16,821 nt of DNA from a virus (lineage: Duplodnaviria; Heunggongvirae; Uroviricota; Caudoviricetes). Shown here piece after piece: positions 1 to 16,821 of the stretch (positions are counted from its first letter, which is position 1; each line of letters opens with the position of its first letter). A program made the translations under genes and the position numbers. The stretch lies in the IMG/VR virus record IMGVR_UViG_2671180758_000023. One strand, written 5' to 3'. Below the pieces are notes generated by a model, which was not told the DNA's origin, made no database searches, and saw only the letters and a program-made list of their open reading frames with translations.

Positions 1-1461
1 ATGAAAAAATTACTGCGTCTTTTTTTCCCGCTCTCACTGCGGGTACGTTTTCTGTTGGCAACGGCTGCGGTAGTACTGGTGCTTTCGCTTGCCTACGGAA
101 TGGTCGCGCTGATCGGTTATAGCGTCAGTTTCGATAAAACTACGTTTCGGCTGTTACGTGGCGAGAGCAATCTGTTCTATACCCTTGCGAAGTGGGAAAA
201 CAATAAGTTGCATGTCGAGTTACCCGAAAATATCGACAAGCAAAGCCCCACCATGACGCTAATTTATGATGAGAACGGGCAGCTTTTATGGGCGCAACGT
301 GACGTGCCCTGGCTGATGAAGATGATCCAGCCTGACTGGCTGAAATCGAATGGTTTTCATGAAATTGAAGCGGATGTTAACGATACCAGCCTCTTGCTGA
401 GTGGAGATCATTCGATACAGCAACAGTTGCAGGAAGTGCGGGAAGATGATGACGACGCGGAGATGACCCACTCGGTGGCAGTAAACGTCTACCCGGCAAC
501 ATCGCGGATGCCAAAATTAACCATTGTGGTGGTGGATACCATTCCGGTGGAGCTAAAAAGTTCCTATATGGTCTGGAGCTGGTTTATCTATGTGCTCTCA
601 GCCAATCTGCTGTTAGTGATCCCGCTGCTGTGGGTCGCCGCCTGGTGGAGTTTACGCCCCATCGAAGCCCTGGCAAAAGAAGTCCGCGAACTGGAAGAAC
701 ATAACCGCGAATTGCTCAATCCAGCCACAACGCGAGAACTGACCAGTCTGGTACGAAACCTGAACCGATTGTTAAAAAGTGAACGCGAACGTTACGACAA
801 ATACCGTACGACGCTCACCGACCTGACCCATAGTCTGAAAACGCCACTGGCGGTGCTGCAAAGTACGCTGCGTTCTCTGCGTAGTGAAAAGATGAGCGTC
901 AGTGATGCTGAGCCGGTAATGCTGGAGCAAATCAGCCGCATTTCACAGCAAATTGGCTACTACCTGCATCGTGCCAGTATGCGCGGCGGGACATTGCTCA
1001 GCCGCGAGCTGCATCCGGTCGCCCCACTGCTGGACAATCTCACCTCAGCGCTGAACAAAGTGTATCAACGCAAAGGGGTCAATATCTCTCTCGATATTTC
1101 GCCAGAGATCAGCTTTGTCGGTGAGCAGAACGATTTTGTCGAGGTGATGGGCAACGTGCTGGATAATGCCTGTAAATATTGCCTCGAGTTTGTCGAAATT
1201 TCTGCAAGGCAAACCGACGAGCATCTCTATATTGTGGTCGAGGATGATGGCCCCGGTATTCCATTAAGCAAGCGAGAGGTCATTTTCGACCGTGGTCAAC
1301 GGGTTGATACTTTACGCCCTGGGCAAGGTGTAGGGCTGGCGGTAGCCCGCGAAATCACCGAGCAATATGAGGGTAAAATCGTCGCCGGAGAGAGCATGCT
1401 GGGCGGTGCGCGGATGGAGGTGATTTTTGGTCGCCAGCATTCTGCGCCGAAAGATGAATAA
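1..1461 (+). CDS. phoQ: Sensor histidine kinase PhoQ (complete, 486 aa)
   Basis: Full-length ORF starting at window base 1. Two N-terminal TM segments, acidic periplasmic patch (EDDDDAEM), HAMP, H-box ([10 protein letters not shown]) and HATPase motifs ([16 protein letters not shown]). Matches E. coli PhoQ as I recall it. Stop TAA at 1459-1461. Confidence 0.95.
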
Positions 1462-1970
1462 ATATGTCCTTTTATCACCACAGCAAGGCAACCCATTGAT
1501 TTAATTAAACAACTCACACTGCAAAAAGTGCTAAAAACAGCAAATTGACTACACCATTAACTACACCGTTCGGTGCACTGTATGAAACAACGTGGAACAA
1601 ATAGACACAAGAAATATACAGGCGGGTAATCTTTCCAGGGGGATGCGCACCAATTCATGAGGGGCGTTAATGTCGATATGGGGATCCCCATAACGGGGCT
1701 ACCGGATTTTTTTCCGGTTAACTGTTAATCAGGCTGGTGGGTTTTACCTGTTCGGTAGGTGTTATGATTATCGTAATACTTTTCCCCCAATGGGGTAAAA
1801 GCATCAACCGTAACGGAAGTCGTTATGGTTGCCTTGATGATCTGCGTGGTCATTATGACCATTCAGTCAATGACCTTAATCAGAGCTTTTCGCTAAAAAT
1901 GACGTTGGCCACGTCATCCGGAAAGCACAAAATCCCATCGATTTTTAATTAACGGTTAAACCGTCTTTTT

Positions 1971-4864: not shown

Positions 4865-5204
4865 GCTCGTCCTCTTCTTCTGTTTCCGGTGGATTTTTAC
4901 GGCGGCTTATCGGGTCAAAACCGAGCAAAGAGGCCATTTTTATCATCACTCTTTCAGCGTCGGATTTTGCGCTTAATGCGGGGTTTCTGCTCTCTCCGCC
5001 CTGACTGTTAACAATGCTGAACCCGCGCGCCGCAAGGTCTGCGACGGCTTTCCGGTATATCGAGTAATTGACGCAATACAGTTCCAGATTACTCCAGTCG
5101 GCGGGAGTCAGGTCACCCCGTTCCGCAAGCTGCCGCGATTTTTCCCGCCACTGCTTCACGGCGATATCATCCAGGTAGGCGGGGGCTTTCGGTGGTCTTG
5201 CCAT
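4848..5204 (-). CDS. Terminase small subunit, P27 family (118 aa)
   Basis: MARPPKAP...LELYCVNYSIYRKAVADLAARG pattern typical of P27-family TerS. Position immediately 5' of TerL. Weak RBS. Confidence 0.8.
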   Translation of the reverse strand: MARPPKAPAYLDDIAVKQWREKSRQLAERGDLTPADWSNLELYCVNYSIYRKAVADLAARGFSIVNSQGGESRNPALSAKSDAERVMIKMASLLGFDPISRRKNPPETEEEDELDRLE

Positions 5205-5494
5205 GCTTATTTTTTCGCCAGATTATTTTTCAAAAAATTCCCGTGCATAAAAATTTGAGGAGGCGTTCGGTGCCCGGCGGGGTCGGGTTTGTCCTGAAAA
5301 CGCCCCCCCACCCCGTCATACAGCCTCATCAGCGATTGCGGAAACATTCCATAACCTCGCGGTCACGGTCGGTTAATCGCTTCGCTGTGATGCGTTCTGC
5401 GCGTCCTGACGCTTTATCTTTATGCCCTGTTTCCTGTGTCTTCCATGCGTCACGCTGCCTTATAAGTCCACGGATAAGGCGGTTTTGTTCCCGC
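5205..5494. other. HNH-terS intergenic region; candidate cos/packaging site (G-rich tract tgcccggcggggtcggg at about 5271-5287)
   Basis: 290-bp non-coding gap in an otherwise tightly coupled operon, between an HNH endonuclease and a P27-family TerS, which is the arrangement of cos-type HK97-like phages. The G-rich tract is only loosely similar to lambda cosN (GGGCGGCGACCT). Confidence 0.3.
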
Positions 5495-5935
5495 TCATTC
5501 ATCAGCGTCATACATCCAGTTATTGCGGTTAGCGGCCCGTTCTTCCTCCTCACGGAATCCGCCAGCGGCACGCTTGCTTTTTGTTGCCGGATCAAGCCAC
5601 TTCGTTTTCTGGTTATGACACGCCTGGCACAATGGCTGATGGTTCCATTCGGGCCAGAAGAGAACATCATCACCGCCATTAATCGGGATAATGTGATCCA
5701 CCACCACGGCGGGCGTATATATCCCCTTCTCAAGGCATCGCACGCATAACGGGTTTTTACTCAGATACATGGCGCGGTATTTGTCCCACTGTCTGGAGTA
5801 CCCACGCGCGCGGCGGTGTCCTCGTCTGGCATCCTCTGCACGCCATGCCGCCCGCCTGTGCTCCTCACACTTGCCGGACTTCACGCGCCTGTTACAGCCT
5901 GGTTCTGTGCATCGTCTTAATGGTTGCCACGGCAT
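5495..5935 (-). CDS. HNH endonuclease (146 aa), terminase-associated
   Basis: Cys-rich zinc-finger-like N-terminus (CTEPGCNRRVKSGKCEEH, CVRC) and HNH core (DHIIPINGG...NHQPLCQACHNQK). Start overlaps the connector stop (TGATG). Confidence 0.85.
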   Translation of the reverse strand: MPWQPLRRCTEPGCNRRVKSGKCEEHRRAAWRAEDARRGHRRARGYSRQWDKYRAMYLSKNPLCVRCLEKGIYTPAVVVDHIIPINGGDDVLFWPEWNHQPLCQACHNQKTKWLDPATKSKRAAGGFREEEERAANRNNWMYDADE

Positions 5936-6231
5936 CAGTACACCCCCACATCACGGTAAGCCGTCCAGAGTGCACCAATCGTCATGGGTACGCGTGTTTT
6001 TGCGTTATCCGCGACAATCTGGCGATTTTCATACAGGTGAGCGATAAACATCATGCAGCCAATCTTTATGGCTGGCGTGAACGCCAGCCCGTCATCAAAG
6101 CGCCTGCCTATGTGTATCTGGCACGCCTCAAGCGATGCGGCAATGTATCCGCTGATTAACTGGTCTTCCTCGTCGCCATCGATGCGGCAATGGAGTTTCA
6201 CTTCTTCCAGGGTGATAAGTTCTTCTGTCAT
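5935..6231 (-). CDS. Head-tail connector protein, gp6-like (98 aa)
   Basis: MTEELITLEEVKLHCRIDGDEEDQLISGYIAAS...AHLYENRQ matches the gp6-like connector pattern (LxEVKxHLRID...DxLI). ATGA overlap with the upstream gene. Confidence 0.75.
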   Translation of the reverse strand: MTEELITLEEVKLHCRIDGDEEDQLISGYIAASLEACQIHIGRRFDDGLAFTPAIKIGCMMFIAHLYENRQIVADNAKTRVPMTIGALWTAYRDVGVY

Positions 6232-6566
6232 TTTTCCGCGCCCTCACGACAAAGAATTTCAAGGCGTGTCCTGGCGGCATCCGGCAGCGGCTGCCCGATG
6301 ATATTCAGTACACGCCCCGCCAGCGGCCCCGTATTGACCTTTATCCGGCTGGTGGCGTTGATGTCCTTCCTGTAGCGTATCCATATCCTTACCGTTCCAG
6401 TCGCCAGTTCTGCACCCGATGAAATGGCCTCCTTGCTGCTGATCATGTTCACGCTTGCCCAGAGTGTGTGACCGTCCACCCACGTTTCGAGTATTTCGCC
6501 GGTTATATCCCTGGTCTGTTTCAGGGTCTGAATCGTTACCCTGTCACGCAGTCGCCCTATGTTCAT
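6228..6566 (-). CDS. Head closure / head-tail joining protein (112 aa from ATG 6566; ORF extends to 6608)
   Basis: GRLRDRVTIQ...TWVDGHTLWASV...VRIWIRYRKDI...RIKV matches the head-closure family pattern. ATG at 6566 forms an ATGA overlap with the portal stop. An alternative ATG lies at 6608. Confidence 0.7.
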   Translation of the reverse strand: MNIGRLRDRVTIQTLKQTRDITGEILETWVDGHTLWASVNMISSKEAISSGAELATGTVRIWIRYRKDINATSRIKVNTGPLAGRVLNIIGQPLPDAARTRLEILCREGAEK

Positions 6567-7774
6567 TCCGGTTTTTCTCCCTCGCTGATTTTTACTTCCT
6601 GTTTCCATGCCTGGCTGAACTCATCACCACCATCACGCGGGGACAGCCCTTCACGTTCGCGGGCTTCGTTCGGGCACATAACGCCGGATTTGATGCCGCG
6701 TTCATAGGTGGCAAAGCGTTCGCCAGGTGTGGCCCGTAACAGGTCCGCGCTGTCAAACTCCACCTGATACCGGATACCAGGTACAGGTGAGGCCACCAGC
6801 AGGGCGTTTTTTATCTGCTGCTCAAAGTTCGCCAGCCACGGGCGCATCGTCATGGTGAGAAATGCGCGGCTTGCCTCGCTGAAATTGCTGTAGGTGCTGT
6901 TGCTGTATTCCTGCAAAAAAATCGGCGAGACGTTGAACATTCGGGCGATGTCTTCAATGGTGAAGCGACGGGAGGCCAGCCATTCAGCATCCTGATTACT
7001 CATGCCCAGCTGCTGATAGCTCATACCCCCTTCAAGGATGGGCGTTTTTCCGGCGTTTCTGGCCCCTTTGTAGCGTTCCAGTGCGGCTAATGCCTGTTTG
7101 CCCTTCACGCCGTCCAGCCATTCGCCTGACGTGATAACCCCTGCCGCCATCATGCCATCACGCATCACGCTCGCGCCGTGGCGTTGTTGGGCCAGCCCAA
7201 GCCCCAGCGATTCGCGGCAGATGGTTACAGGTGAGCGCCCCATAAAACCGTCATCCGTGGAGTAACGAAGGTGGAGAACCTCCCACGGTAAATAGTTGCG
7301 GGTGTTTCCGGTGTAGGCGTCAGTGATGCAGTAGCGCCAGTTATGCTCACCTGTCTGCTCCACGTTCACCGACTGCGGCGGGTAAGGATGCAAAGCCACC
7401 GGAAAACCATCACGCCCCCACTGAATCACCGCATAAGCATTACCGTTTAACAGGCAGTGGCGGATCATCATTCGCTTAAACTGGTAGGGGGTTTGCCATG
7501 CGTTCGGGCGCTCGTTGAGGATGTGATCGACCGGATGAGAATCAAGCCACTCTCGGGCCTCCTTCCCCTTCTCATTGCGTACCAGGTACAGGTAACACGG
7601 CATGGTAGCCACCGCCTCAGAGATGACCGTGACGGCGTTCATGACGGCGGGCAGTGATTCCGCTGTCCCCGATGATACGTACTCACCCGCCCCCGTGTTC
7701 GATGTGCCGGCCAGCGCCATAAACTCATCAAGCGTCATGCTGCGCTGCTCTTTTTTTCTTCTGAAAGGCCACAT
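6563..7774 (-). CDS. Portal protein, HK97 family (403 aa)
   Basis: Length and sequence pattern typical of HK97-family portals. RBS GGGGGTG 7 nt before ATG 7774. Sits between the protease and head-closure genes. Confidence 0.9.
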   Translation of the reverse strand: MWPFRRKKEQRSMTLDEFMALAGTSNTGAGEYVSSGTAESLPAVMNAVTVISEAVATMPCYLYLVRNEKGKEAREWLDSHPVDHILNERPNAWQTPYQFKRMMIRHCLLNGNAYAVIQWGRDGFPVALHPYPPQSVNVEQTGEHNWRYCITDAYTGNTRNYLPWEVLHLRYSTDDGFMGRSPVTICRESLGLGLAQQRHGASVMRDGMMAAGVITSGEWLDGVKGKQALAALERYKGARNAGKTPILEGGMSYQQLGMSNQDAEWLASRRFTIEDIARMFNVSPIFLQEYSNSTYSNFSEASRAFLTMTMRPWLANFEQQIKNALLVASPVPGIRYQVEFDSADLLRATPGERFATYERGIKSGVMCPNEAREREGLSPRDGGDEFSQAWKQEVKISEGEKPE

Positions 7775-8387: not shown

Positions 8388-9545
8388 TTAATCGTCGTCC
8401 TGTGGCAGTTCCAGAATCTTGATCGCGTTCGAATCCACCACGCCACCGCCTAAATATTTCTGCGTGAAAATTTTGATGAAGCCCGGCTCTGTGAGGTTGT
8501 CCGGTCTGGTGCGAACACCTGTTTCGTGATCAACAATGTAGTAACCGCGTTTGAAGTCACCCAGGGCAATAACGTTATCAGGCATAAACTCCAGATATTC
8601 GACCGGAAGGCCCAGCAACGTATCAGGATCACCCGCCTGTAAACGGTCGCGCCAGATGTAATCACCGTTCGCGTTCTTCACCTTCTGAAGTTTTGCCGCC
8701 GTCGTGGAGTTAACCACCCAGACCGCGTTTTTGCGGTATTTTTTACGTAATGCAAATTTCAGGTCGATCAGCGGGTCCGCAGATGTCCACGCCAGAGATT
8801 CGGAAGGTTTAATTACCTGCAACGTACCAAAATCACGCTCTTTGTCGTTCTTCTCTGCACGGGGTACGGATAAAAAACCTTTTGCTTTTTTGTCACCGTC
8901 GCCCACAACCAGATCGCTTTCTTCGGTTTCCGTGAAGGTGTCGCCAATCTCACCCGTCAGCCATGAAAGGATGTCCACATCGGAAAAATCCACGATTTCC
9001 TGTGTGGTGCGCGGGTACGCATAGACCGGATACAGCTTAATGCTCACCTCGTTAATCTGCGGGGTGCTGGTCTGTTCGCGTGTCTTACCCTCTTCACCGT
9101 GGTTAACGGTCGCACCGCCAGCGGAAACAAGCTGCTTAAACTCGTTGCTGCTGATTTTCTTCACGGTACAGATGCGGCGCATGGTGGATTCATCCGTCAG
9201 CATTCGCATGATTTCGGTGTTCAGTTCGGGGATAACGGTATAACCACCATCAGCGGGAACGCCTGTACTTAATGCGCGGGTTTCACCTGTCAGAATGTAG
9301 TTGCGTAGTTCTGCGGGGTCAGTGGTCTGGCTGCTTTTACCTGGCTTGCTGCGCTCTTCGTCTGCAATGGCTTCAAGGCGGGAAATGTCTTTATCGAGGG
9401 ATTCAGCTTTAGCGCGTAATTCGTCAAATTTTGCGCCCTCAGCATCGTTAAGACTGCGGTTTTCTTTTTCCGCGTTCTCCAGCATGTCGCGCATCTGATT
9501 TTTAATGGCGGTTTTCTGCTGGCGTAATTCGATTATTCTCGGCAT
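8388..9545 (-). CDS. Major capsid protein, HK97 fold (385 aa from ATG 9545; ORF track extends to a GTG at 9593)
   Basis: N-terminal coiled-coil delta/scaffold-like domain (IELRQQKTAIKNQMRDMLENAEKENRSL...) followed by a typical HK97 MCP body. AGGA 8 nt before ATG 9545. Confidence 0.9.
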   Translation of the reverse strand: MPRIIELRQQKTAIKNQMRDMLENAEKENRSLNDAEGAKFDELRAKAESLDKDISRLEAIADEERSKPGKSSQTTDPAELRNYILTGETRALSTGVPADGGYTVIPELNTEIMRMLTDESTMRRICTVKKISSNEFKQLVSAGGATVNHGEEGKTREQTSTPQINEVSIKLYPVYAYPRTTQEIVDFSDVDILSWLTGEIGDTFTETEESDLVVGDGDKKAKGFLSVPRAEKNDKERDFGTLQVIKPSESLAWTSADPLIDLKFALRKKYRKNAVWVVNSTTAAKLQKVKNANGDYIWRDRLQAGDPDTLLGLPVEYLEFMPDNVIALGDFKRGYYIVDHETGVRTRPDNLTEPGFIKIFTQKYLGGGVVDSNAIKILELPQDDD

Positions 9546-9634
9546 AAAAAAAGTCCTGGGGTTAAGTAAGGAACTCCAGGACGCGGCAAACACTCAACCG
9601 TTTTTCATAAGGAAATCAGTAATCGCACCGATCG

Positions 9635-9689: not shown

Positions 9690-9800
9690 CCAGCGTCCTG
9701 GCACCACGGGCGAGAATAATCATGATTCAGGTCGGGTAAAATATGCCGTTCCGGTCAGCGAGCAACGTGGAACAACCACGAACAAATAATTTACAAAACA
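9690..9800 (-). promoter_or_regulatory. Candidate late (capsid-operon) promoter region containing the 13-bp motif CAACGTGGAACAA (9763-9775) and TTGCTC-N16-TATTTT on the minus strand
   Basis: Only sizeable non-coding gap upstream of the head operon. The motif is repeated at 1588-1600 with conserved flanking ACCGRAACGG. Promoter hexamers are a by-eye match. Confidence 0.35.
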
Positions 9801-9826
9801 TGACAAAAAGCCGGATTGCTCCGGCT
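9801..9826 (-). terminator. Rho-independent terminator after the PerC-like gene (hairpin agccgga-ttgc-tccggct followed by a U-run on the minus strand)
   Basis: 7-bp GC-rich stem with 4-nt loop at 9809-9826. Five A on the plus strand (9805-9809) equal a U-run 3' of the hairpin on the minus strand. 7 nt after the stop at 9833. Confidence 0.6.
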
Positions 9827-10777: not shown

Positions 10778-10985
10778 CCCACCTCTACCCACTTTTTTCG
10801 CCCACTTTTTACGTTTTCCCACTTCGTCCAACGTGGGAAATTTGGGATTTATATCATCTTGTTTCATAGGTATTTTTTTAGTGCCCACTTTTTGGGATAT
10901 ATACACGTGGGAAAGTGGGTAATTTTGTTAAAATTCCGTTAAATCGCCCACCTTTCCCACTTTTAATGCCCACTTTTTACAGTGG
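10778..10985. repeat. Iteron array (about 10 copies of CCCACTT(TT), both orientations) flanking an AT-rich core; candidate replication origin
   Basis: Copies at 10778, 10788, 10801, 10818, 10884, 10947, 10956 and 10969, with inverted copies at 10833-10838 and 10907-10919. AT-rich spacer at 10838-10883. Immediately 3' of the replication ATPase gene, as in PICI/SaPI origins. Confidence 0.55.
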
Positions 10986-12377
10986 TCCTACATCATCACC
11001 GTCAATGTAGATCACGTCGTCTTTTTCCAGTTTGGCTAACCATCGTTTAAGGTGTTTTGTGTCATACCCCAGCTTTTTCATATCGTCACGTAACAGCGGG
11101 ATCGTGCACTTGTCGCCGTGCTGTGTGCGTGAACGTATGCATCCCCATAGCGCGGTATGGTTTTCCGTCTTGTTCCCTGCCTCCTCGATGCGCTCCAGTT
11201 CAACAGGAGGGCGCGGATCATCCACCACCACCAGCGACGTGATTAATTCACCGTCAGCGTCGGTAAAAAGCTCCACCACGCGTAAGTCATATGCGGCTTC
11301 TTTGAGTTCCTCCGCGTCCTTCATTTTGGTGCATGAGATAACCAGCGCTTCGCTTCCTGCGTCCTCCCTGCGTATCCGGTATTCAGCATCCAGCGAAGCA
11401 CGAAATGCACTGGAACCGCGCGCGCCTTTCGTCTCATCCTTGCCGGAATGGTGAACCACCAGCACCGTGGCCCCTGTGCGTCGTTTCAGTTCGTCACAAC
11501 CACGGATAAACGCCCCCATATCACGGGAATCATTTTCATCATTCCCACCAAAGCAACGCGCCAGCGTATCCAGAATAATCATGCGTACAGGTTTACCCGT
11601 TTCCCGCTCCACCTGACGGGCAGCGATAACCATTTCATCAACATCAAGCGGGGCAGCCGGAAAGATGGGGCGGTTTACCAGATACAGATTTTTCACCTGC
11701 TCATCGTGCACAACCTCCCAGGCTTTTACACGACGCGGAACACCTATACCGCCTTCACCAACCACATAGAGAACCGCACCATGTGCAACCCTGCGGCCTC
11801 CCCACTGGCGACCAGTGGCAACATGGCACGCCCACGATCCGGCAAGGAATGATTTATAGGACCCGCTAGCCCCGTATATGCTGCATAGCGATACCGCCGG
11901 AATAATCCCCTTAACCACGTAATCCAGTTGCGTGTCGTATCCGGTAGATCCAACGCTCATCGGTAGCGTGGTTTTTCGCTGGTGGTTTTTTTCTTCCGCC
12001 GGCTCTTTCCCGCGCACCCGTTCCAGGTATTCGCGCCAGTTCTCCCGCATATGGCTGTGCATCCCTTCGGGGTAATAATTCGCATCAGTTACACCCGCCG
12101 CCGCCAGCTTGTGCGCAATGGCATTAATATTTGATGGCCTGATGTGGCCTGCCTTGTACAGCCGGACACAATAGCGCCCCTCGTCGATGATTCTCAGGTC
12201 TGCCAGTTCATCCAGTTGATCATCAGCCAGCACAACGGGAGGCACATTATCGCCAGCCAGTCGCCCGTCCTGTTCCTGCCACTGTTTCGCATGTGCCCAG
12301 GCATCACTACCCGCAAAAATAATGACTTCGGTCATCTTGTCGTAAGGCTGTTTTTTTAAGTTCGGTGCGCTTTTCAT
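10977..12377 (-). CDS. Replication protein, RecA-fold ATPase (RepA/AAA_25-like helicase, pri-rep analogue), 466 aa
   Basis: Walker A-like YGASGSYKS, Walker B-like VRMIILDTLARCF, and VLVVHHSGKD motif typical of RepA-like helicase ATPases. Unassigned N-terminal domain and a C-terminal winged-helix-like tail. A canonical primase domain is not evident by eye. Confidence 0.8.
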   Translation of the reverse strand: MKSAPNLKKQPYDKMTEVIIFAGSDAWAHAKQWQEQDGRLAGDNVPPVVLADDQLDELADLRIIDEGRYCVRLYKAGHIRPSNINAIAHKLAAAGVTDANYYPEGMHSHMRENWREYLERVRGKEPAEEKNHQRKTTLPMSVGSTGYDTQLDYVVKGIIPAVSLCSIYGASGSYKSFLAGSWACHVATGRQWGGRRVAHGAVLYVVGEGGIGVPRRVKAWEVVHDEQVKNLYLVNRPIFPAAPLDVDEMVIAARQVERETGKPVRMIILDTLARCFGGNDENDSRDMGAFIRGCDELKRRTGATVLVVHHSGKDETKGARGSSAFRASLDAEYRIRREDAGSEALVISCTKMKDAEELKEAAYDLRVVELFTDADGELITSLVVVDDPRPPVELERIEEAGNKTENHTALWGCIRSRTQHGDKCTIPLLRDDMKKLGYDTKHLKRWLAKLEKDDVIYIDGDDVGPL

Positions 12378-13369: not shown

Positions 13370-13571
13370 AAAGCATCCCCTGAATATTCGTGTTAATCAT
13401 TCCGGCACGTTTTGTGATTTCCTGTAATGATTCCCTTGTGGCGACAATTGCTTCATCTGGTAAGTGGTAATTACACACCACGCGACCTTTATCCACATTG
13501 ACCAGTAGCTGCCCTGTGAATTTCTCACGAAACTGAATGCGGTTAAGGTCAGTAAGTGACAGATTAATCAT
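13359..13571 (-). CDS. Hypothetical protein (70 aa)
   Basis: ORF in the coupled operon; overlaps the upstream gene by 8 nt. No family recognised. Confidence 0.5.
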   Translation of the reverse strand: MINLSLTDLNRIQFREKFTGQLLVNVDKGRVVCNYHLPDEAIVATRESLQEITKRAGMINTNIQGMLYAQ

Positions 13572-13767
13572 GGCGCACCTCCTGACGAATACGGGCAGCG
13601 AATACCATCACGCAGCCAGCCGGAGATTGCTGGCGTGCTTCCTGTTCGCTGGTGGCCTCAATGGTAATCACGCGCGGTTGTGCCGTGCTCAGGGCGATAA
13701 AACGCCAGATGTATTTATTCAGGTTGTGCGAGTCCCGCCCTTGCGGGTGTGTGGTATTATTTCTCAT
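13564..13767 (-). CDS. Small protein (67 aa) resembling Icd-like (host cell division inhibitor-like) proteins of P4-family elements
   Basis: GAGG RBS 5 nt before ATG 13767. Motifs YIWRF, IEATSEQEAR and FAARIRQEV recall P4-family Icd-like proteins (from memory, not searched). First gene after the divergent promoter region. Confidence 0.45.
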   Translation of the reverse strand: MRNNTTHPQGRDSHNLNKYIWRFIALSTAQPRVITIEATSEQEARQQSPAGCVMVFAARIRQEVRHD

Positions 13768-13802
13768 AGCTACCTCGATACTCTCGTTATCGTTGGTGGT
13801 TA

Positions 13803-13837
13803 GAAGCCCCGTTACTGCTCCAACAGTGCGGGGCTTC
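13803..13837 (-). ncRNA. Leader stem-loop (gaagccccg ... cggggcttc, 9-bp stem, 17-nt loop) in the 5' UTR of the early operon
   Basis: Dyad read directly. Lies between the predicted minus-strand promoter and the Icd-like start codon. Not followed by a U-run. Confidence 0.3.
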
Positions 13838-13874
13838 GTCGTTTCAATTGCTGAATTGCATGTATCAGCACTTG

Positions 13875-13929
13875 TGGTATTCACATTACATTTAGGTGAA
13901 TACCATTTCAAGTCTTTTTTGGTATTCAC
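13875..13929. promoter_or_regulatory. Operator array in the divergent switch region: three copies of TGGTATTCAC (two form a 10-11-10 palindrome), overlapping back-to-back promoters
   Basis: Copies at 13875-13884, 13896-13905 (inverted) and 13920-13929. Minus-strand promoter candidate TTGAAA (13906-13911), 17-bp spacer, TAATGT (13883-13888) overlaps copies 1 and 2. Plus-strand -10 candidate TATTAC (13935-13940) lies just after copy 3. Confidence 0.45.
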
Positions 13930-13972
13930 TTTTGTATTACACTGCATCCCGTTATTAATGGGAGGTGCAAAC

Positions 13973-14278
13973 ATGTCCAGGAGTTCTGTTAACAATAAGT
14001 CACAGCAACTGAATGCCAGATTTCCACATGAAGTAGTGAGTGGCATTGAGGCATCCCTACAGCCAGGGGAAACTAAAGCGAATTTTATAGTTACGGCTGT
14101 ACGCGGTGAGATCGCCCGGCGCCAGGCAGAAGGAAGTGGAGAAAATCCCCTGGTTTCTTCGCTCGATGCACTGGCGCAGGTGGAAAAACTCGGAATCAAA
14201 GCCGCCGAGGAGATCGGGCAGCTCGTCACTGTCGCACGTGAAGAACTCCAGCGCCGCAAGACCAAAGAACCAGAGTAA
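13973..14278 (+). CDS. Ribbon-helix-helix-like DNA-binding protein (101 aa); candidate repressor/regulator of the switch
   Basis: Strong RBS GGGAGGTG 5 nt before ATG 13973. N-terminal beta-strand-helix-helix pattern (LNARFPHEVVSGIEASL...ANFIVTAVRGEIARRQ). Divergent from the early operon. Followed by a clear intrinsic terminator. Confidence 0.6.
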   Translation: MSRSSVNNKSQQLNARFPHEVVSGIEASLQPGETKANFIVTAVRGEIARRQAEGSGENPLVSSLDALAQVEKLGIKAAEEIGQLVTVAREELQRRKTKEPE

Positions 14279-14335
14279 TCACCATCAGCGCCGTGGTGTA
14301 AGGTATTACGGCGCATTGCTATGCAGGACAACACA

Positions 14336-14509
14336 ATGACCGATAAAGAATTGACCAAAACATTATCACCGGCACGGAAAAGACGGCGCAGAAAGATAGA
14401 GCATGAATCAGAAAGATTCGCGCCATGTGCTTTTGCCCTTGAGCAATTCCTTAAAGAGTACAGGGAAAAGCGCTCATTGCAGGTATGGCAACGAACTGAA
14501 CCAGACTGA
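14336..14509 (+). CDS. Hypothetical small basic protein (57 aa)
   Basis: AGGA 8 nt before ATG 14336. Basic patch RKRRRRK. Same transcription unit as the RHH gene, ending before the terminator at 14589. Confidence 0.4.
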   Translation: MTDKELTKTLSPARKRRRRKIEHESERFAPCAFALEQFLKEYREKRSLQVWQRTEPD

Positions 14510-14588
14510 TTGCATTGCCCACCAGCCGCAAATGTGGCATTGTTGGCAATGCTCATGCGTTGGGGATAACGTGTAGCTTGTGTCGAGG

Positions 14589-14617
14589 GGCCACCGTAGC
14601 GGGTGGCCTTTGTTTTG
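14589..14617 (+). terminator. Rho-independent terminator (ggccacc-gtagcg-ggtggcc followed by TTTGTTTTG)
   Basis: Perfect 7-bp GC-rich stem, 6-nt loop and U-run, about 80 nt after the stop of the plus-strand operon. Confidence 0.7.
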
Positions 14618-14985
14618 CCCGTTATTCGGCAATTGTGGCGCTTCTCCACATGGTTGATATAATCCCACTGCTCAGATTCATTTTTTGCGCAGTAGGTTAA
14701 TTGTTCACAAAGGCGCTCCGGCAACGGGGCGCTTTTTGTTTTTATTAGTTTGTAGAAACCTGACTCAGAGATAATGCTCATATTCTGATTGCCGTCAGGG
14801 GTGTAAGTTAAATTTACTCCCTTTTTATCATCAAACATCTGCAACGCTCTGGCGTTAACAATATTGGTTTCACTCCCGCCAGTAAGGCCGGAAATAACCG
14901 GAATAATTTCGGCAAAATTTTGCAGATTCTGTTTTTCAGGACGAACGAAGCCCCGCCCTTGTTCGGGAGAATATCCAGTATTCAT
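14618..14985 (-). pseudogene. Bro-N-like antirepressor N-terminal domain, probably a gene remnant (no in-frame stop before running antisense through the plus-strand operon)
   Basis: Residues DDKKGVNLTYTPDGNQNMSIISESGFYKLIKTKSAPLPERL align to the Bro-N pattern (DEDEKGV...GG.Q...IISE.GLY.LI..S..P.A..F). Weak RBS. The frame stays open for 473 codons to 13564, but the middle section is Ser/Cys/Arg-rich antisense of a well-supported plus-strand gene. Confidence 0.3.
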
Positions 14986-15037: not shown

Positions 15038-15226
15038 TTAGTGAACTGCCTCGCAGCTGTCCTTCCATGCCAGAACTTCGGATAAAGACCAGCCAACGGA
15101 ACGACCGCCCAGCTTACGCCGTGATGGGAATTGTCCGGCTTTTTCCAGGCGGTACCGACATGAGCGGCTCAGGCCTGTAAGTTGCTGACATTCTTTTTCA
15201 CGTATAAAGCGATCTGTGCTTAACAC
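15038..15226 (-). CDS. alpA: AlpA-family transcriptional regulator / excisionase-like protein (about 62 aa, GTG start)
   Basis: Motif QLTGLSRSCRYRLEKAGQFPSRRKLGGRSVGWSLSEVLAWK matches the AlpA winged-helix pattern. AAGGGGG RBS 4 nt before GTG at 15226. Confidence 0.8.
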   Translation of the reverse strand: MLSTDRFIREKECQQLTGLSRSCRYRLEKAGQFPSRRKLGGRSVGWSLSEVLAWKDSCEAVH

Positions 15227-15256
15227 AATTCCCCCTTTGTTGTTTCTTAAAGAGTC

Positions 15257-15310
15257 ATTGGGTGGATTATTGGGTTGGGTTGTGTCGGATTGTGTCAGGG
15301 TGTTTGTGGA
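15257..15310. repeat. Degenerate direct repeats with about 10-bp period (ttgggtgg, tgggttgggt, tgtgtcggat, tgtgtcaggg, tgtttgtgga) immediately upstream of alpA
   Basis: Read directly. Lies in the alpA 5' region on the transcribed strand. Function unknown. Confidence 0.4.
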
Positions 15311-15510
15311 ATGGCAAACACTGGCGGCGGTCGTTTTACAGAAGCAGGGGGAATGAGAATAAAAACTCTTTTAATTCATTATGATGCAAAGGCATAAAAT
15401 TTTACTTTTACGCCTTTTTTACATATTTTTAAGAGTGATTCGCCAGTGTATAAAAAAACAGTACACCTATAAAAATCAAATGGTTATTACGATGGCTGAT
15501 TTTTAACCCG

Positions 15511-15570
15511 TTGTTCCATTTTGTTCCTTGTTGTTCGTCGTTGTGTCTCGTTGTTTCACGTTGTCCGCAT
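15511..15570. repeat. Six tandem 10-bp-phased repeats (ttgttccatt ttgttccttg ttgttcgtcg ttgtgtctcg ttgtttcacg ttgtccgcat) just 3' of the integrase gene
   Basis: Read directly; every 10-mer starts with TTGT. Exact helical phasing over 60 bp. Shares the GAACAA/CAACG core with the late-promoter motif (reverse complement). Confidence 0.55.
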
Positions 15571-15591
15571 CCTGAAAAATCGCAAAAAAAA

Positions 15592-16821
15592 TTATATTTC
15601 TCTGGCTATTGGCAATGTGGTTACGTTTTCATGTGTTCCCGCCAGTATCCCTAACCGCTCCGTCCACATATCCAGCGCGTCACGTTTCGCATCCAGATAA
15701 CGGGAATGGTTATAGACTCGTTGCATCCCTGGCATCTGATGACCTGTAAGCTGCTCCACGACGTGAGGATCCACGCCTAAATCGTTCAGCATCGTTGTAA
15801 AGGTGCGCCGGATGTCATGCAGTGACCAGTGAGGGTGTTTTAGCCTCCTGTGCGCTAATCTGCCGTACTGCGACACGCTTGTTTCCTGTTTCAATTCCCC
15901 CAGCAATAAGCCCGTGTGCCTGTTCTGCTCCACCAGCTGCGTGACGAACGGCAGTATTGCTTCCGGTATGGGCCGGAATATTGCCACCTTCGTTTTGCTG
16001 TGTTCTTTCGGCACGGTCCAGAGCATTTCGGTAAAATCCCACTCGCTGATCTCCGATAACCTCAGTTCTACCGTCCGGCATCCGAAAACAATCAGGAGGC
16101 GGATTAGTGCGACGTAGTAAGGGGAAAATATTTTTTTGTCCAGTGCCTGCAATAATTCGCCAAGTTCTTTGGTGCTTAAGACACGCTCGCTTATATCCGG
16201 TTTTTTCCCAACGTCCGCCACACTCATATCATCAAGAACGTTGCTGATTGCATAGCGCCGCCTCCGGCAGAACTTAAGCGCCTGTTTGCACGTCTGTAGC
16301 AAGAATCCGGCAGTAACAGGCGTTCGCTTTGCCACCTGGTCAAAACAGGCCAGCCAGTGCCGTAGCTCGCATTTATCCAGCGGCATAGCACCAATGTGCT
16401 GTATTACGTGATTATTAAGGCGCTTTTTCAGGGCGGCATAATCCACGCGGTTTTCCTTTACGTAAGACTCAAGCCAGTAGGTAAGCGCATCGCCAACCGT
16501 TACGGGCTTTAACGCTTTCTGTACGGTGTAATTCATCTCATGACGTGGATTTTTCCCCTCAGCAAGCCAAGCGCGACACTGTGCCGCTTTTTCCCTGGCA
16601 GCTTTCAGACTCAGATCAGGATAATTTCCCAGCTTAATCCGTTCCGGTCGTGCTCCCCTTCCCGTTCCGGCCCTGTAGGTGAAATACCAGGTTAAAAGGC
16701 CGCTGGTTGAATGCCTGACGCTCAGGTTTCCACCGTCATTAAGAAAAGCTGTTTTTTGGGCGGGTGTGCCGTTGATTTTCCTCAGCTGTGTATCGCTCAG
16801 TTTGTTAAGTGCTCTGCTCAT
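15592..16821 (-). CDS. Tyrosine integrase, P4-type (409 aa); start codon at the window edge
   Basis: N-terminal arm-binding-like domain (LSDTQLRKINGTPAQKTAFLNDGGNLSVRHSTSGLLTWYFTYR) and catalytic motifs (HDIRRTF, C-terminal Y in GMQRVYNHSRY). ATG at 16819-16821. Confidence 0.9.
   Translation of the reverse strand: MSRALNKLSDTQLRKINGTPAQKTAFLNDGGNLSVRHSTSGLLTWYFTYRAGTGRGARPERIKLGNYPDLSLKAAREKAAQCRAWLAEGKNPRHEMNYTVQKALKPVTVGDALTYWLESYVKENRVDYAALKKRLNNHVIQHIGAMPLDKCELRHWLACFDQVAKRTPVTAGFLLQTCKQALKFCRRRRYAISNVLDDMSVADVGKKPDISERVLSTKELGELLQALDKKIFSPYYVALIRLLIVFGCRTVELRLSEISEWDFTEMLWTVPKEHSKTKVAIFRPIPEAILPFVTQLVEQNRHTGLLLGELKQETSVSQYGRLAHRRLKHPHWSLHDIRRTFTTMLNDLGVDPHVVEQLTGHQMPGMQRVYNHSRYLDAKRDALDMWTERLGILAGTHENVTTLPIAREI

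Follow-up and report, generated by a model that had tools for sequence, protein, structure and literature searches.

Recombination directionality factors (RDFs) bind direct repeats that are one helix turn apart. They require at least three adjacent sites, and the boxes of the attachment site recur at a promoter far away from it; the early operon opens with the RDF gene (PMC7498355). This mode of binding has been established for Apl of phage 186, and the same source summarizes Xis of lambda, Cox of P2 and Vis of P4 (PMC7498355). In the case of P2 Cox, there are at least six boxes per target, and the orientation of the boxes decides between repression and activation (PMC3936717). Here, we describe two arrays of phased boxes in a stretch of viral DNA of 16,821 nucleotides (IMG/VR record IMGVR_UViG_2671180758_000023), hereafter called the window. 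The arrays are located in the 365-bp spacer between the integrase gene (int) and alpA of a phage satellite. Because it carries int, alpA, DUF4222, RepA-type helicase, HK97-type capsid, portal and large terminase genes, this element is a capsid-forming phage-inducible chromosomal island (PICI) of Escherichia coli. On computational evidence and by analogy, we propose that the arrays are operators for AlpA, acting as an RDF and a regulator, and we hold this reading to be reasonably probable.

AlpA is the master switch of Gram-negative PICIs. In EcCICFT073, the experimental prototype among E. coli PICIs, AlpA activates a reporter of the alpA promoter, and overexpression of AlpA alone triggers int-dependent excision and replication without a helper (PMC6092414). 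In EcCIMP1, alpA is needed for excision. In the Vibrio satellite PICMI, AlpA is both necessary and sufficient for excision (PMC10803314). The int-alpA module of the window is essentially that of the laboratory prototype: it differs from the EcCICFT073 module at 3 of 1784 nucleotides, and the arrays hold none of these three. The DNA targets of PICI AlpA are not described in the literature searched. Phased RDF operators themselves are well known from P2, 186, P4, lambda and KplE1; therefore, the finding is useful rather than surprising. A defined box and five mapped arrays make three questions testable, namely the autoregulation of AlpA, its possible action as the excisionase and the switching-on of the capsid operon.

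Phased arrays between int and alpA

The coordinates and box sequences of array B are given in Table 1. Array B starts 22 bp past the int stop codon, and its TTGT motifs are at 15511, 15521, 15531, 15541, 15551 and 15561. Among all 4-mers, taken at periods of 6 to 15, it is the sole run of more than three units in the window. In 200 dinucleotide shuffles of the whole window, the longest 4-mer run was 3. When the intergenic region alone was shuffled 5000 times, a run of 4 appeared once and none was longer. Tandem Repeats Finder (TRF) likewise calls period 10 at this site. An earlier reading of the window (the original prediction) had pointed to six consecutive TTGT 10-mers here. This observation holds: the spacing is exactly 10 bp, and the shuffles never reach six units.

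Array A has the same orientation as array B, with TTGT on the plus strand in both arrays. The original prediction had placed a second array with a 10-bp period at this position. The array is real but more degenerate than had been claimed. Three boxes, at 15279, 15289 and 15299 (15279-15308; GTTGTGTCGG, ATTGTGTCAG and GGTGTTTGTG), are in exact 10-bp register, and two further units, at 15257 and 15269, are of the TTGG type. Between the arrays (15330-15509), the GC content is 23-33%. Thus, the stretch between the arrays that had been described as AT-rich and promoter-like is indeed AT-rich, but the best promoter candidate is found at its alpA-proximal edge, where it overlaps array A.

Twelve int-alpA spacers were aligned. 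The islands concerned use four integration sites (roxA, abgR, ilv and tqsA) and carry three Rep types (RepA helicase, primase and DUF927). Because a scan of representative genomes with Int gave one locus, diversity was sampled from E. coli genomes and IMG/VR. Of 5426 complete E. coli genomes, 878 contain a related version of the 365-bp spacer, and it is annotated in none of them. The length of the spacer varies from 359 to 376 bp among the twelve members. Both arrays, whose presence in related elements had been left for checking by the original prediction, are kept in all twelve of these diverged members. In array B, three to six boxes are retained in each member; the TTGT(T) core is near-invariant at 10-bp phasing and the remaining box positions are variable. 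The consensus derived from 36 distinct boxes is rTTGTtcCac. Both arrays are clearly real, conserved and functional.

The same alignment bears on the idea that the arrays, which flank an AT-rich stretch, might be a replication origin or a second iteron-type site acting in cis in replication. The likeness is superficial and consists of two sets of short repeats on either side of an AT-rich region. The origin lies elsewhere, directly 3′ of repA: the segment 10775-10980 contains some twelve CCCAC(T/C)TT iterons, distributed over both strands and grouped into two sets that flank an AT-rich core. Origins of E. coli PICIs have the same position and architecture, and the origin of EcCICFT073 has been mapped there (PMC6092414). 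The arrays, in contrast, are 2.8 kb upstream of the repA start and not immediately 3′ of the initiator gene, and the box motif is unlike the iterons. Furthermore, identical arrays accompany a RepA helicase (in the window) and a primase (in NCTC86 and CFT073), and related arrays accompany DUF927. Because the iterons lie 3′ of repA and identical arrays accompany different Rep proteins, we rejected the origin, which we consider very improbable.

Boxes of the same type in the attachment site and before the capsid gene

A matrix was trained solely on array B, and a run was defined as three or more boxes at exact 10-bp spacing. Outside array B, runs were found at only four places in the element: array A, the P arm and the P′ arm of the attachment site (attP), and 9757-9786 (hereafter, the late cluster). 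As controls, dinucleotide shuffles of the element gave 0.025 runs per 17 kb; no run was present in 80 kb of flanking chromosome and prophage, and about 1.9 Mb of other viral loci gave about 7 unrelated matches. In addition to these runs, an isolated strong box is present in the alpA leader (Table 1).

The late cluster is placed between a terminator (9809-9826), which it follows immediately, and the capsid gene, and it forms an invariant block amid strongly diverged late regions. All elements with this capsid module possess the cluster, and it is absent from EcCICFT073, whose late module differs. Because a simple sigma-70 scan downstream of the late cluster gave no consensus promoter, the late promoter is only a presumed one. 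An invariant TTTTGTAAATTA at 9787-9800, just upstream of the cluster, contains a fourth TTGT, 11 bp from the first box.

The original prediction had noticed that TTGTTCC is the reverse complement of the GGAACAA core of a late motif and had supposed that one protein may recognize both. GGAACAA/TTGTTCC was confirmed upstream of the capsid gene, within the late cluster. The same boxes at the same 10-bp phasing occur at both places, which is consistent with a single protein reading the arrays and the late motif, as in the known RDF systems. The motif search that had been suggested over the complete element and related satellites also gave a positive outcome, with boxes in both attP arms, before the capsid operon and across the family.

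Elements with an Int of the helper-embedded PICI (HE-PICI) clade, only 42% identical, and with TGTATTGC motifs in the arms retain the late cluster together with an AlpA paralogue that has the TGLSRS recognition helix. Complete HE-PICIs that carry only the other AlpA type have no phased runs. Judging from these sequences, the boxes appear to track the AlpA type and not the Int clade. In L032 (6640-7215; also in L282 and L291), two alpA paralogues are arranged in tandem; one is of the HE type with a C-terminal GEW motif and one is of the TGLSRS type as in the window. This arrangement suggests that the roles of RDF and regulator may be divided between two proteins. HE-PICIs were tried as a co-variation test and set aside: their seemingly long int-alpA spacers hold a second alpA paralogue and no arrays. 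L269 was likewise dismissed as a counterexample, as it is really a second element nested within a capsid-forming PICI; at 5087-6790 of this locus, a second integrase/AlpA-like element stands beside a truncated large terminase gene (nested or tandem elements). In an HE-PICI (L056, 3942-3971), there is a perfect 10-bp tandem of three GTTTTTCGTA units, about 1 kb downstream of alpA. This tandem may represent the box of the other AlpA type.

The late cluster and the family also bear on whether the boxes are bound by some other protein, such as the DUF4222 protein, the PerC-like protein or a host nucleoid protein. The DUF4222 gene was found in all family members examined, and in many members a PerC-like gene is located just upstream of the late cluster. 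However, DUF4222 is part of the replication module and is also present in a lambdoid prophage. The PerC-like gene is missing from several members that retain the arrays; therefore, the arrays are probably not PerC sites. We know of no host protein that reads TTGT at 10-bp phasing. Consequently, we regard a ligand of this kind as unlikely.

AlpA as the candidate ligand

The arrangement of the boxes corresponds to the published signature of RDF operators. The boxes are direct repeats, arranged head-to-tail one helical turn apart, with at least three adjacent (array B has six and array A has three to five). The same boxes are found within the attachment site, beside putative integrase arm-type sites. 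Boxes also overlap a predicted promoter away from the attachment site, and alpA, the proposed RDF gene, leads the operon that this promoter would control. Finally, the element encodes a small winged-helix protein of the excisionase type, AlpA. An AlphaFold2 (AF2) model of AlpA, with a predicted local distance difference test (pLDDT) score of 88.5, has as its best match in the PDB the excisionase of GIsul2 (8c3t; TM 0.79/0.85), followed by RdfS and TorI. A literature search for PDB entry 8c3t gave nothing relevant.

Because of this signature, the fold of AlpA and the published experiments with AlpA on a near-identical module, we read arrays A and B as AlpA operators. The original prediction had proposed a phased site for either an AlpA/Xis-like protein or the arm-binding domain of the integrase. 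The boxes in the attP arms and at the capsid operon favor the first of these; the second is disfavored, as described in the next section. The sequences directly show the boxes with their phasing, distribution and conservation; that AlpA binds them, and whether it activates or represses at a given site, we infer.

Several points weigh against AlpA operators. First, no close family member lacks Int or AlpA; therefore, co-variation is weak. The support from the HE clade (L032, L282 and L291) comes from a single lineage. Second, AlpA left the Pint reporter of EcCICFT073 unchanged, although there are seven boxes between the core and the int ATG (PMC6092414). TorI, in contrast to AlpA at Pint, represses PintS in KplE1. 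TorI is 26% identical to AlpA and is outside the Pfam family Phage_AlpA. Third, the positions of array A and of the leader box relative to the alpA promoter predict repression, whereas the published net effect is activation. Fourth, in EcCIMP1 the helper phage still induces the alpA reporter in an alpA mutant. Because the helper can induce alpA without AlpA in this island, another factor acts on this kind of region.

This last result leads to the question of whether a helper-phage protein, for example the helper excisionase, mainly reads the boxes. Binding to the arrays would then be the signal that turns on alpA. In P4, three TTAAAG-type cox-boxes with 10-bp spacing are located about 150 bp upstream of vis, the alpA homologue, and P2 Cox activates that P4 promoter (PMC3936717). 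In EcCICFT073, induction of alpA by the helper phage is independent of SOS (PMC6092414), and cross-talk between the excisionases of PICI and helper has been reported in the EcCIMP1 literature. When the array B matrix was applied to the lambda Xis sites, X1 (GTTGTGTTTT) scored 6.7 bits and X2 (GTAGTCTGTT) scored 5.6 bits; this similarity is modest. To our knowledge, lambda, phi80 and HK106, which are known helpers, share no single Xis. Moreover, the boxes are also present in the attP arms and the late operon of the satellite itself, which a satellite-encoded ligand fits better, and in EcCICFT073 AlpA acts on the reporter and on excision with no helper (PMC6092414). Thus, it seems unlikely that a helper protein is the main reader of the boxes. 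There is a similarly small chance that the arrays are a sensor for a Xis/Cox-type protein of the helper upon prophage induction, with AlpA then taking over the same boxes. If this is true, it would identify the unnamed inducer of Gram-negative PICIs and extend the principle of P2 Cox acting at P4 PLL to lambdoid helpers. The mapped arrays are also a concrete place in which to seek the helper-phage inducer.

Attachment site and putative integrase arm motifs

The island junctions were located with the unoccupied K-12 site as the reference. Their core sequence, ATAAA(A)TATG(T/C)CC, is present at 1458-1469 and about 180 bp past the int ATG. Because the junctions are at these positions, both attP arms are inside the insert. 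The full attP architecture was reconstructed from 1458-1620 of the window and 18823-19003 of L001. The P arm, just beyond the window, contains four boxes and about three weaker ones, that is, seven between the core and the int ATG. The boxes in the attP arms are oriented opposite to those in arrays A and B. Both arms, including the phased boxes, are conserved in the family, and the P arm is kept even among islands that use different cores (roxA, abgR, ilv and tqsA).

In addition to the boxes, the P′ arm carries a doubled ACTACACC motif (Table 1), and a second pair with the same orientation is found outside the window, 22 bp before the int ATG. The pairs are at about 84 and 129 bp from the core. 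This layout matches the annotated arm repeats of P4 attP, which are co-oriented tandem pairs with a 12-bp period; the core is flanked by one pair on either side, and one of the two shortly precedes the int ATG. HE-PICIs also possess a doubled attP motif (tgTGTATTGCantgTGTATTGCa), in co-oriented pairs with a 12-bp period at about 81 and 132 bp. The doubled motif of HE-PICIs and P4 is a companion motif, the counterpart of ACTACACC, and is distinct from the TTGT boxes. HE-PICIs differ in that the int-alpA spacer is 60-75 bp and contains no phased arrays. By this analogy, the doubled ACTACACC motif is a candidate for the integrase arm-type sites.

These findings can be set against the view that the TTGT boxes themselves are integrase arm-type sites, in which case Int bound to the two spacer arrays would keep alpA repressed while the island is at rest. 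Boxes are indeed present in both attP arms, within the arm-type distance of about 200 bp from the core, and Int has an Arm-DNA-bind_3 domain. The P′1-P′3 arm sites of lambda are also in tandem at about 10 bp. In the EcCICFT073 work, a repressor of alpA was not identified (PMC6092414). However, the positions of the annotated P4 arm repeats are held by a different motif, ACTACACC, which also matches the doubled motif of HE-PICIs. Once the island has been excised as a circle, about 1.4-1.7 kb separates the core from arrays A and B, compared with the expected distance of about 200 bp. The boxes of the late operon persist with the HE-clade Int and its TGTATTGC arms (one lineage), whereas the 12-bp doubled motif changes with the clade. 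Furthermore, an integrase site before the capsid operon has no obvious role. Because ACTACACC has the P4 arm layout and the boxes persist with another Int clade, the arrays are probably not arm sites, and we give the integrase little credence as their ligand.

In one relative (L237; 1490-1945 and 1-300), Int is 77% and AlpA is 59% identical. The ACTACACC pairs are retained in this element, and the arm boxes (CGAACAA) and the spacer array (GTTCG-phased) shift in parallel.

Predicted promoter, hairpin and integration host factor-like site of the spacer

The predicted alpA promoter, TTGCCA-17-(C/A)ACAAT, is the top minus-strand candidate in all 12 of the family members. In the window, its -10 hexamer, CACAAT, is the reverse complement of an array A box. 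In members with 10- or 11-bp deletions, the adjacent box provides the -10 element and the 17-bp spacing is retained. Transcription of alpA is predicted to start near 15282. Array A spans about -26 to +26 of this promoter, and the leader box is at about +35 to +44. TGGCAAA is invariant in the family spacer alignment; a sigma-54 reading of this sequence was discarded by eye, as the spacing and the -12 element are unsuitable.

Going upstream from the alpA promoter, the order of elements is hairpin, site like that of integration host factor (IHF) and array B. The hairpin is conserved. It contains one compensatory pair, and a position that is an A.C mismatch in the plus-strand fold becomes a G.U pair in that of the minus strand. 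Because the hairpin is better conserved as minus-strand RNA, we read it as the putative int terminator, which would insulate alpA from int read-through. A short plus-strand transcript, from a TTTACA-19-TAAAAT promoter to the hairpin, was also considered and dropped, because the -10 element is poor in the window and the hairpin is better conserved on the other strand. Four matches to the IHF consensus were found in the window, with 0.69 expected. One is the site between array B and the hairpin, in which AAAATCA is invariant in the family, and one other is in the P′ arm (Table 1).

On the basis of these elements, a mechanism can be drawn for AlpA operators. The box would be about 8 bp within the 10-bp consensus, with one box per helical turn, head-to-tail. 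Binding of AlpA monomers would be cooperative and, as with RDFs, would bend the DNA or make it stiffer. One protein would then have three jobs: it would direct excision at attL/attR, feed back on its own promoter and turn on the packaging operon. In the spacer, the six near-consensus boxes of array B would be occupied first. Array B, together with an IHF-type bend in the AT-rich spacer, may then contact the promoter region, and this contact would give the published positive autoregulation. Finally, once AlpA has become abundant, the weaker array A, which covers the -10 element and the start of transcription, would curb expression.

Comparison with known phased operators

Among the known systems, 186 Apl resembles the present case in that its direct repeats are 10-11 bp apart, seven of them at a promoter region far from the attachment site, with similar boxes at attP and at least three adjacent sites needed (PMC7498355). 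Apl differs from AlpA in its effect: it represses a pair of face-to-face promoters, whereas the reported effect of AlpA on its own promoter is activation. There is no detectable sequence relation between Apl and AlpA. Unlike in 186, two arrays are present here, about 200 bp apart, with the terminator and the IHF-like site between them, and an additional cluster is found at the late operon.

In the case of P2 Cox, a single protein performs excision, repression and activation via phased boxes whose orientation differs by target (PMC3936717), and the three cox-boxes upstream of vis in P4 resemble the arrays in their 10-bp spacing and in their position relative to an alpA homologue. However, the Cox box is TTAAAG/CNCA, and Cox is encoded by the helper, whereas we propose a satellite-encoded ligand.

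KplE1 (CPS-53) also has an integrase of the Arm-DNA-bind_3 type, IntS. Its five TorI sites form two blocks, with the core on one side and the IntS arm sites, beside the int ATG, on the other; the P arm here shows the same order. The TorI sites are GTTCG/GATCG/GTCCG; three of them are 8-bp sites 2 nucleotides apart, which corresponds to 10-bp phasing. The core GTTCG/GTCCG resembles boxes of the present element (TTGTTCG and TTGTCCG). TorI is, like the proposed AlpA, an RDF that also regulates transcription. In contrast to AlpA, with which it shares the low identity given above, TorI has sites that are known only at attL, it represses intS, and no distant arrays are known.

The AlpA of Pseudomonas aeruginosa was considered as a model and rejected. 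AlpA of that organism, with its binding element (ABE), shares only the name and the action at a promoter. It is an unrelated protein, a Q-like antiterminator of more than 140 residues that binds one GGGACG element between -35 and -10, whereas the present protein has 62 residues and a different fold class, and no GGGACG element is present.

Genomic setting and other features

The satellite is inserted between phoQ (1-1461) and roxA, and every satellite gene is on the minus strand, including the DUF4222, portal and large terminase genes. The operon is unidirectional, and alpA is the first gene following int. The features of the window are collected in Table 1.

Table 1. Coordinates of the arrays, boxes, genes and other elements in the window
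Feature	Position	Strand	Description
Array B	15510-15569	+	Six boxes at exact 10-bp spacing: GTTGTTCCAT TTTGTTCCTT GTTGTTCGTC GTTGTGTCTC GTTGTTTCAC GTTGTCCGCA
Array A	15257-15308	+	Degenerate boxes, same orientation as array B
Isolated strong box	15239-15248	+	GTTGTTTCTT; 11.3 bits; alpA leader, immediately upstream of the ribosome-binding site
Late cluster	9757-9786	-	Three boxes at 10-bp spacing: TTTGTTCGTG GTTGTTCCAC GTTGCTCGCT
P′ arm boxes	1582-1611	-	CTTGTGTCTA TTTGTTCCAC GTTGTTTCAT; 10-bp spacing
Doubled motif	1548-1567	+	ACTACACC-N4-ACTACACC; 12-bp period; P′ arm
attL core	1458-1469		ATAAATATGTCC; left island junction, defined against the empty K-12 site
IHF-consensus match	1489-1501	-	AATCAATGGGTTG; between the att core and the P′ arm sites
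IHF-consensus match	15474-15486	+	AATCAAATGGTTA; AT-rich spacer between array B and the hairpin
Predicted alpA promoter	15289-15317	-	-35 TTGCCA (15317-15312), 17-bp spacer with TG, -10 CACAAT (15294-15289)
Conserved hairpin	15388-15417	-	Between the arrays; minus strand -16.6 kcal/mol, plus strand -9.5 kcal/mol
int	15592-16821	-	P4-type tyrosine integrase; Arm-DNA-bind_3 N-terminal domain and catalytic domain (Pfam)
alpA	15038-15226	-	62 residues; winged-helix, excisionase type; Pfam Phage_AlpA, 3e-18
repA	10977-12377	-	RepA-type helicase; start at 12377
HK97-type capsid gene	8388-9593	-

A scan against Rfam gave no known RNA family in the window, including the int-alpA intergenic region. The same or a near-identical int-alpA module (15038-16821) is found in the window, in CFT073 (L016) and in NCTC86 (L001). 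The modules joined to it vary: the replication module has a RepA helicase or a primase, and the late module has an HK97-type or a lambda E-type capsid.

At 13564-14985, the minus strand contains an open reading frame (ORF) of 473 residues without a Pfam match. Two terminator-like hairpins of the plus strand (about 14585-14610 and 14709-14736) fall within this ORF, which also overlaps the plus-strand ORFs 13652-14278 and 14321-14509. In relatives, the corresponding zone is annotated with BRO-N or Icd-like pseudogenes and a YlcI/YnfO gene on the opposite strand. The 473-residue ORF may be composite or partly spurious.

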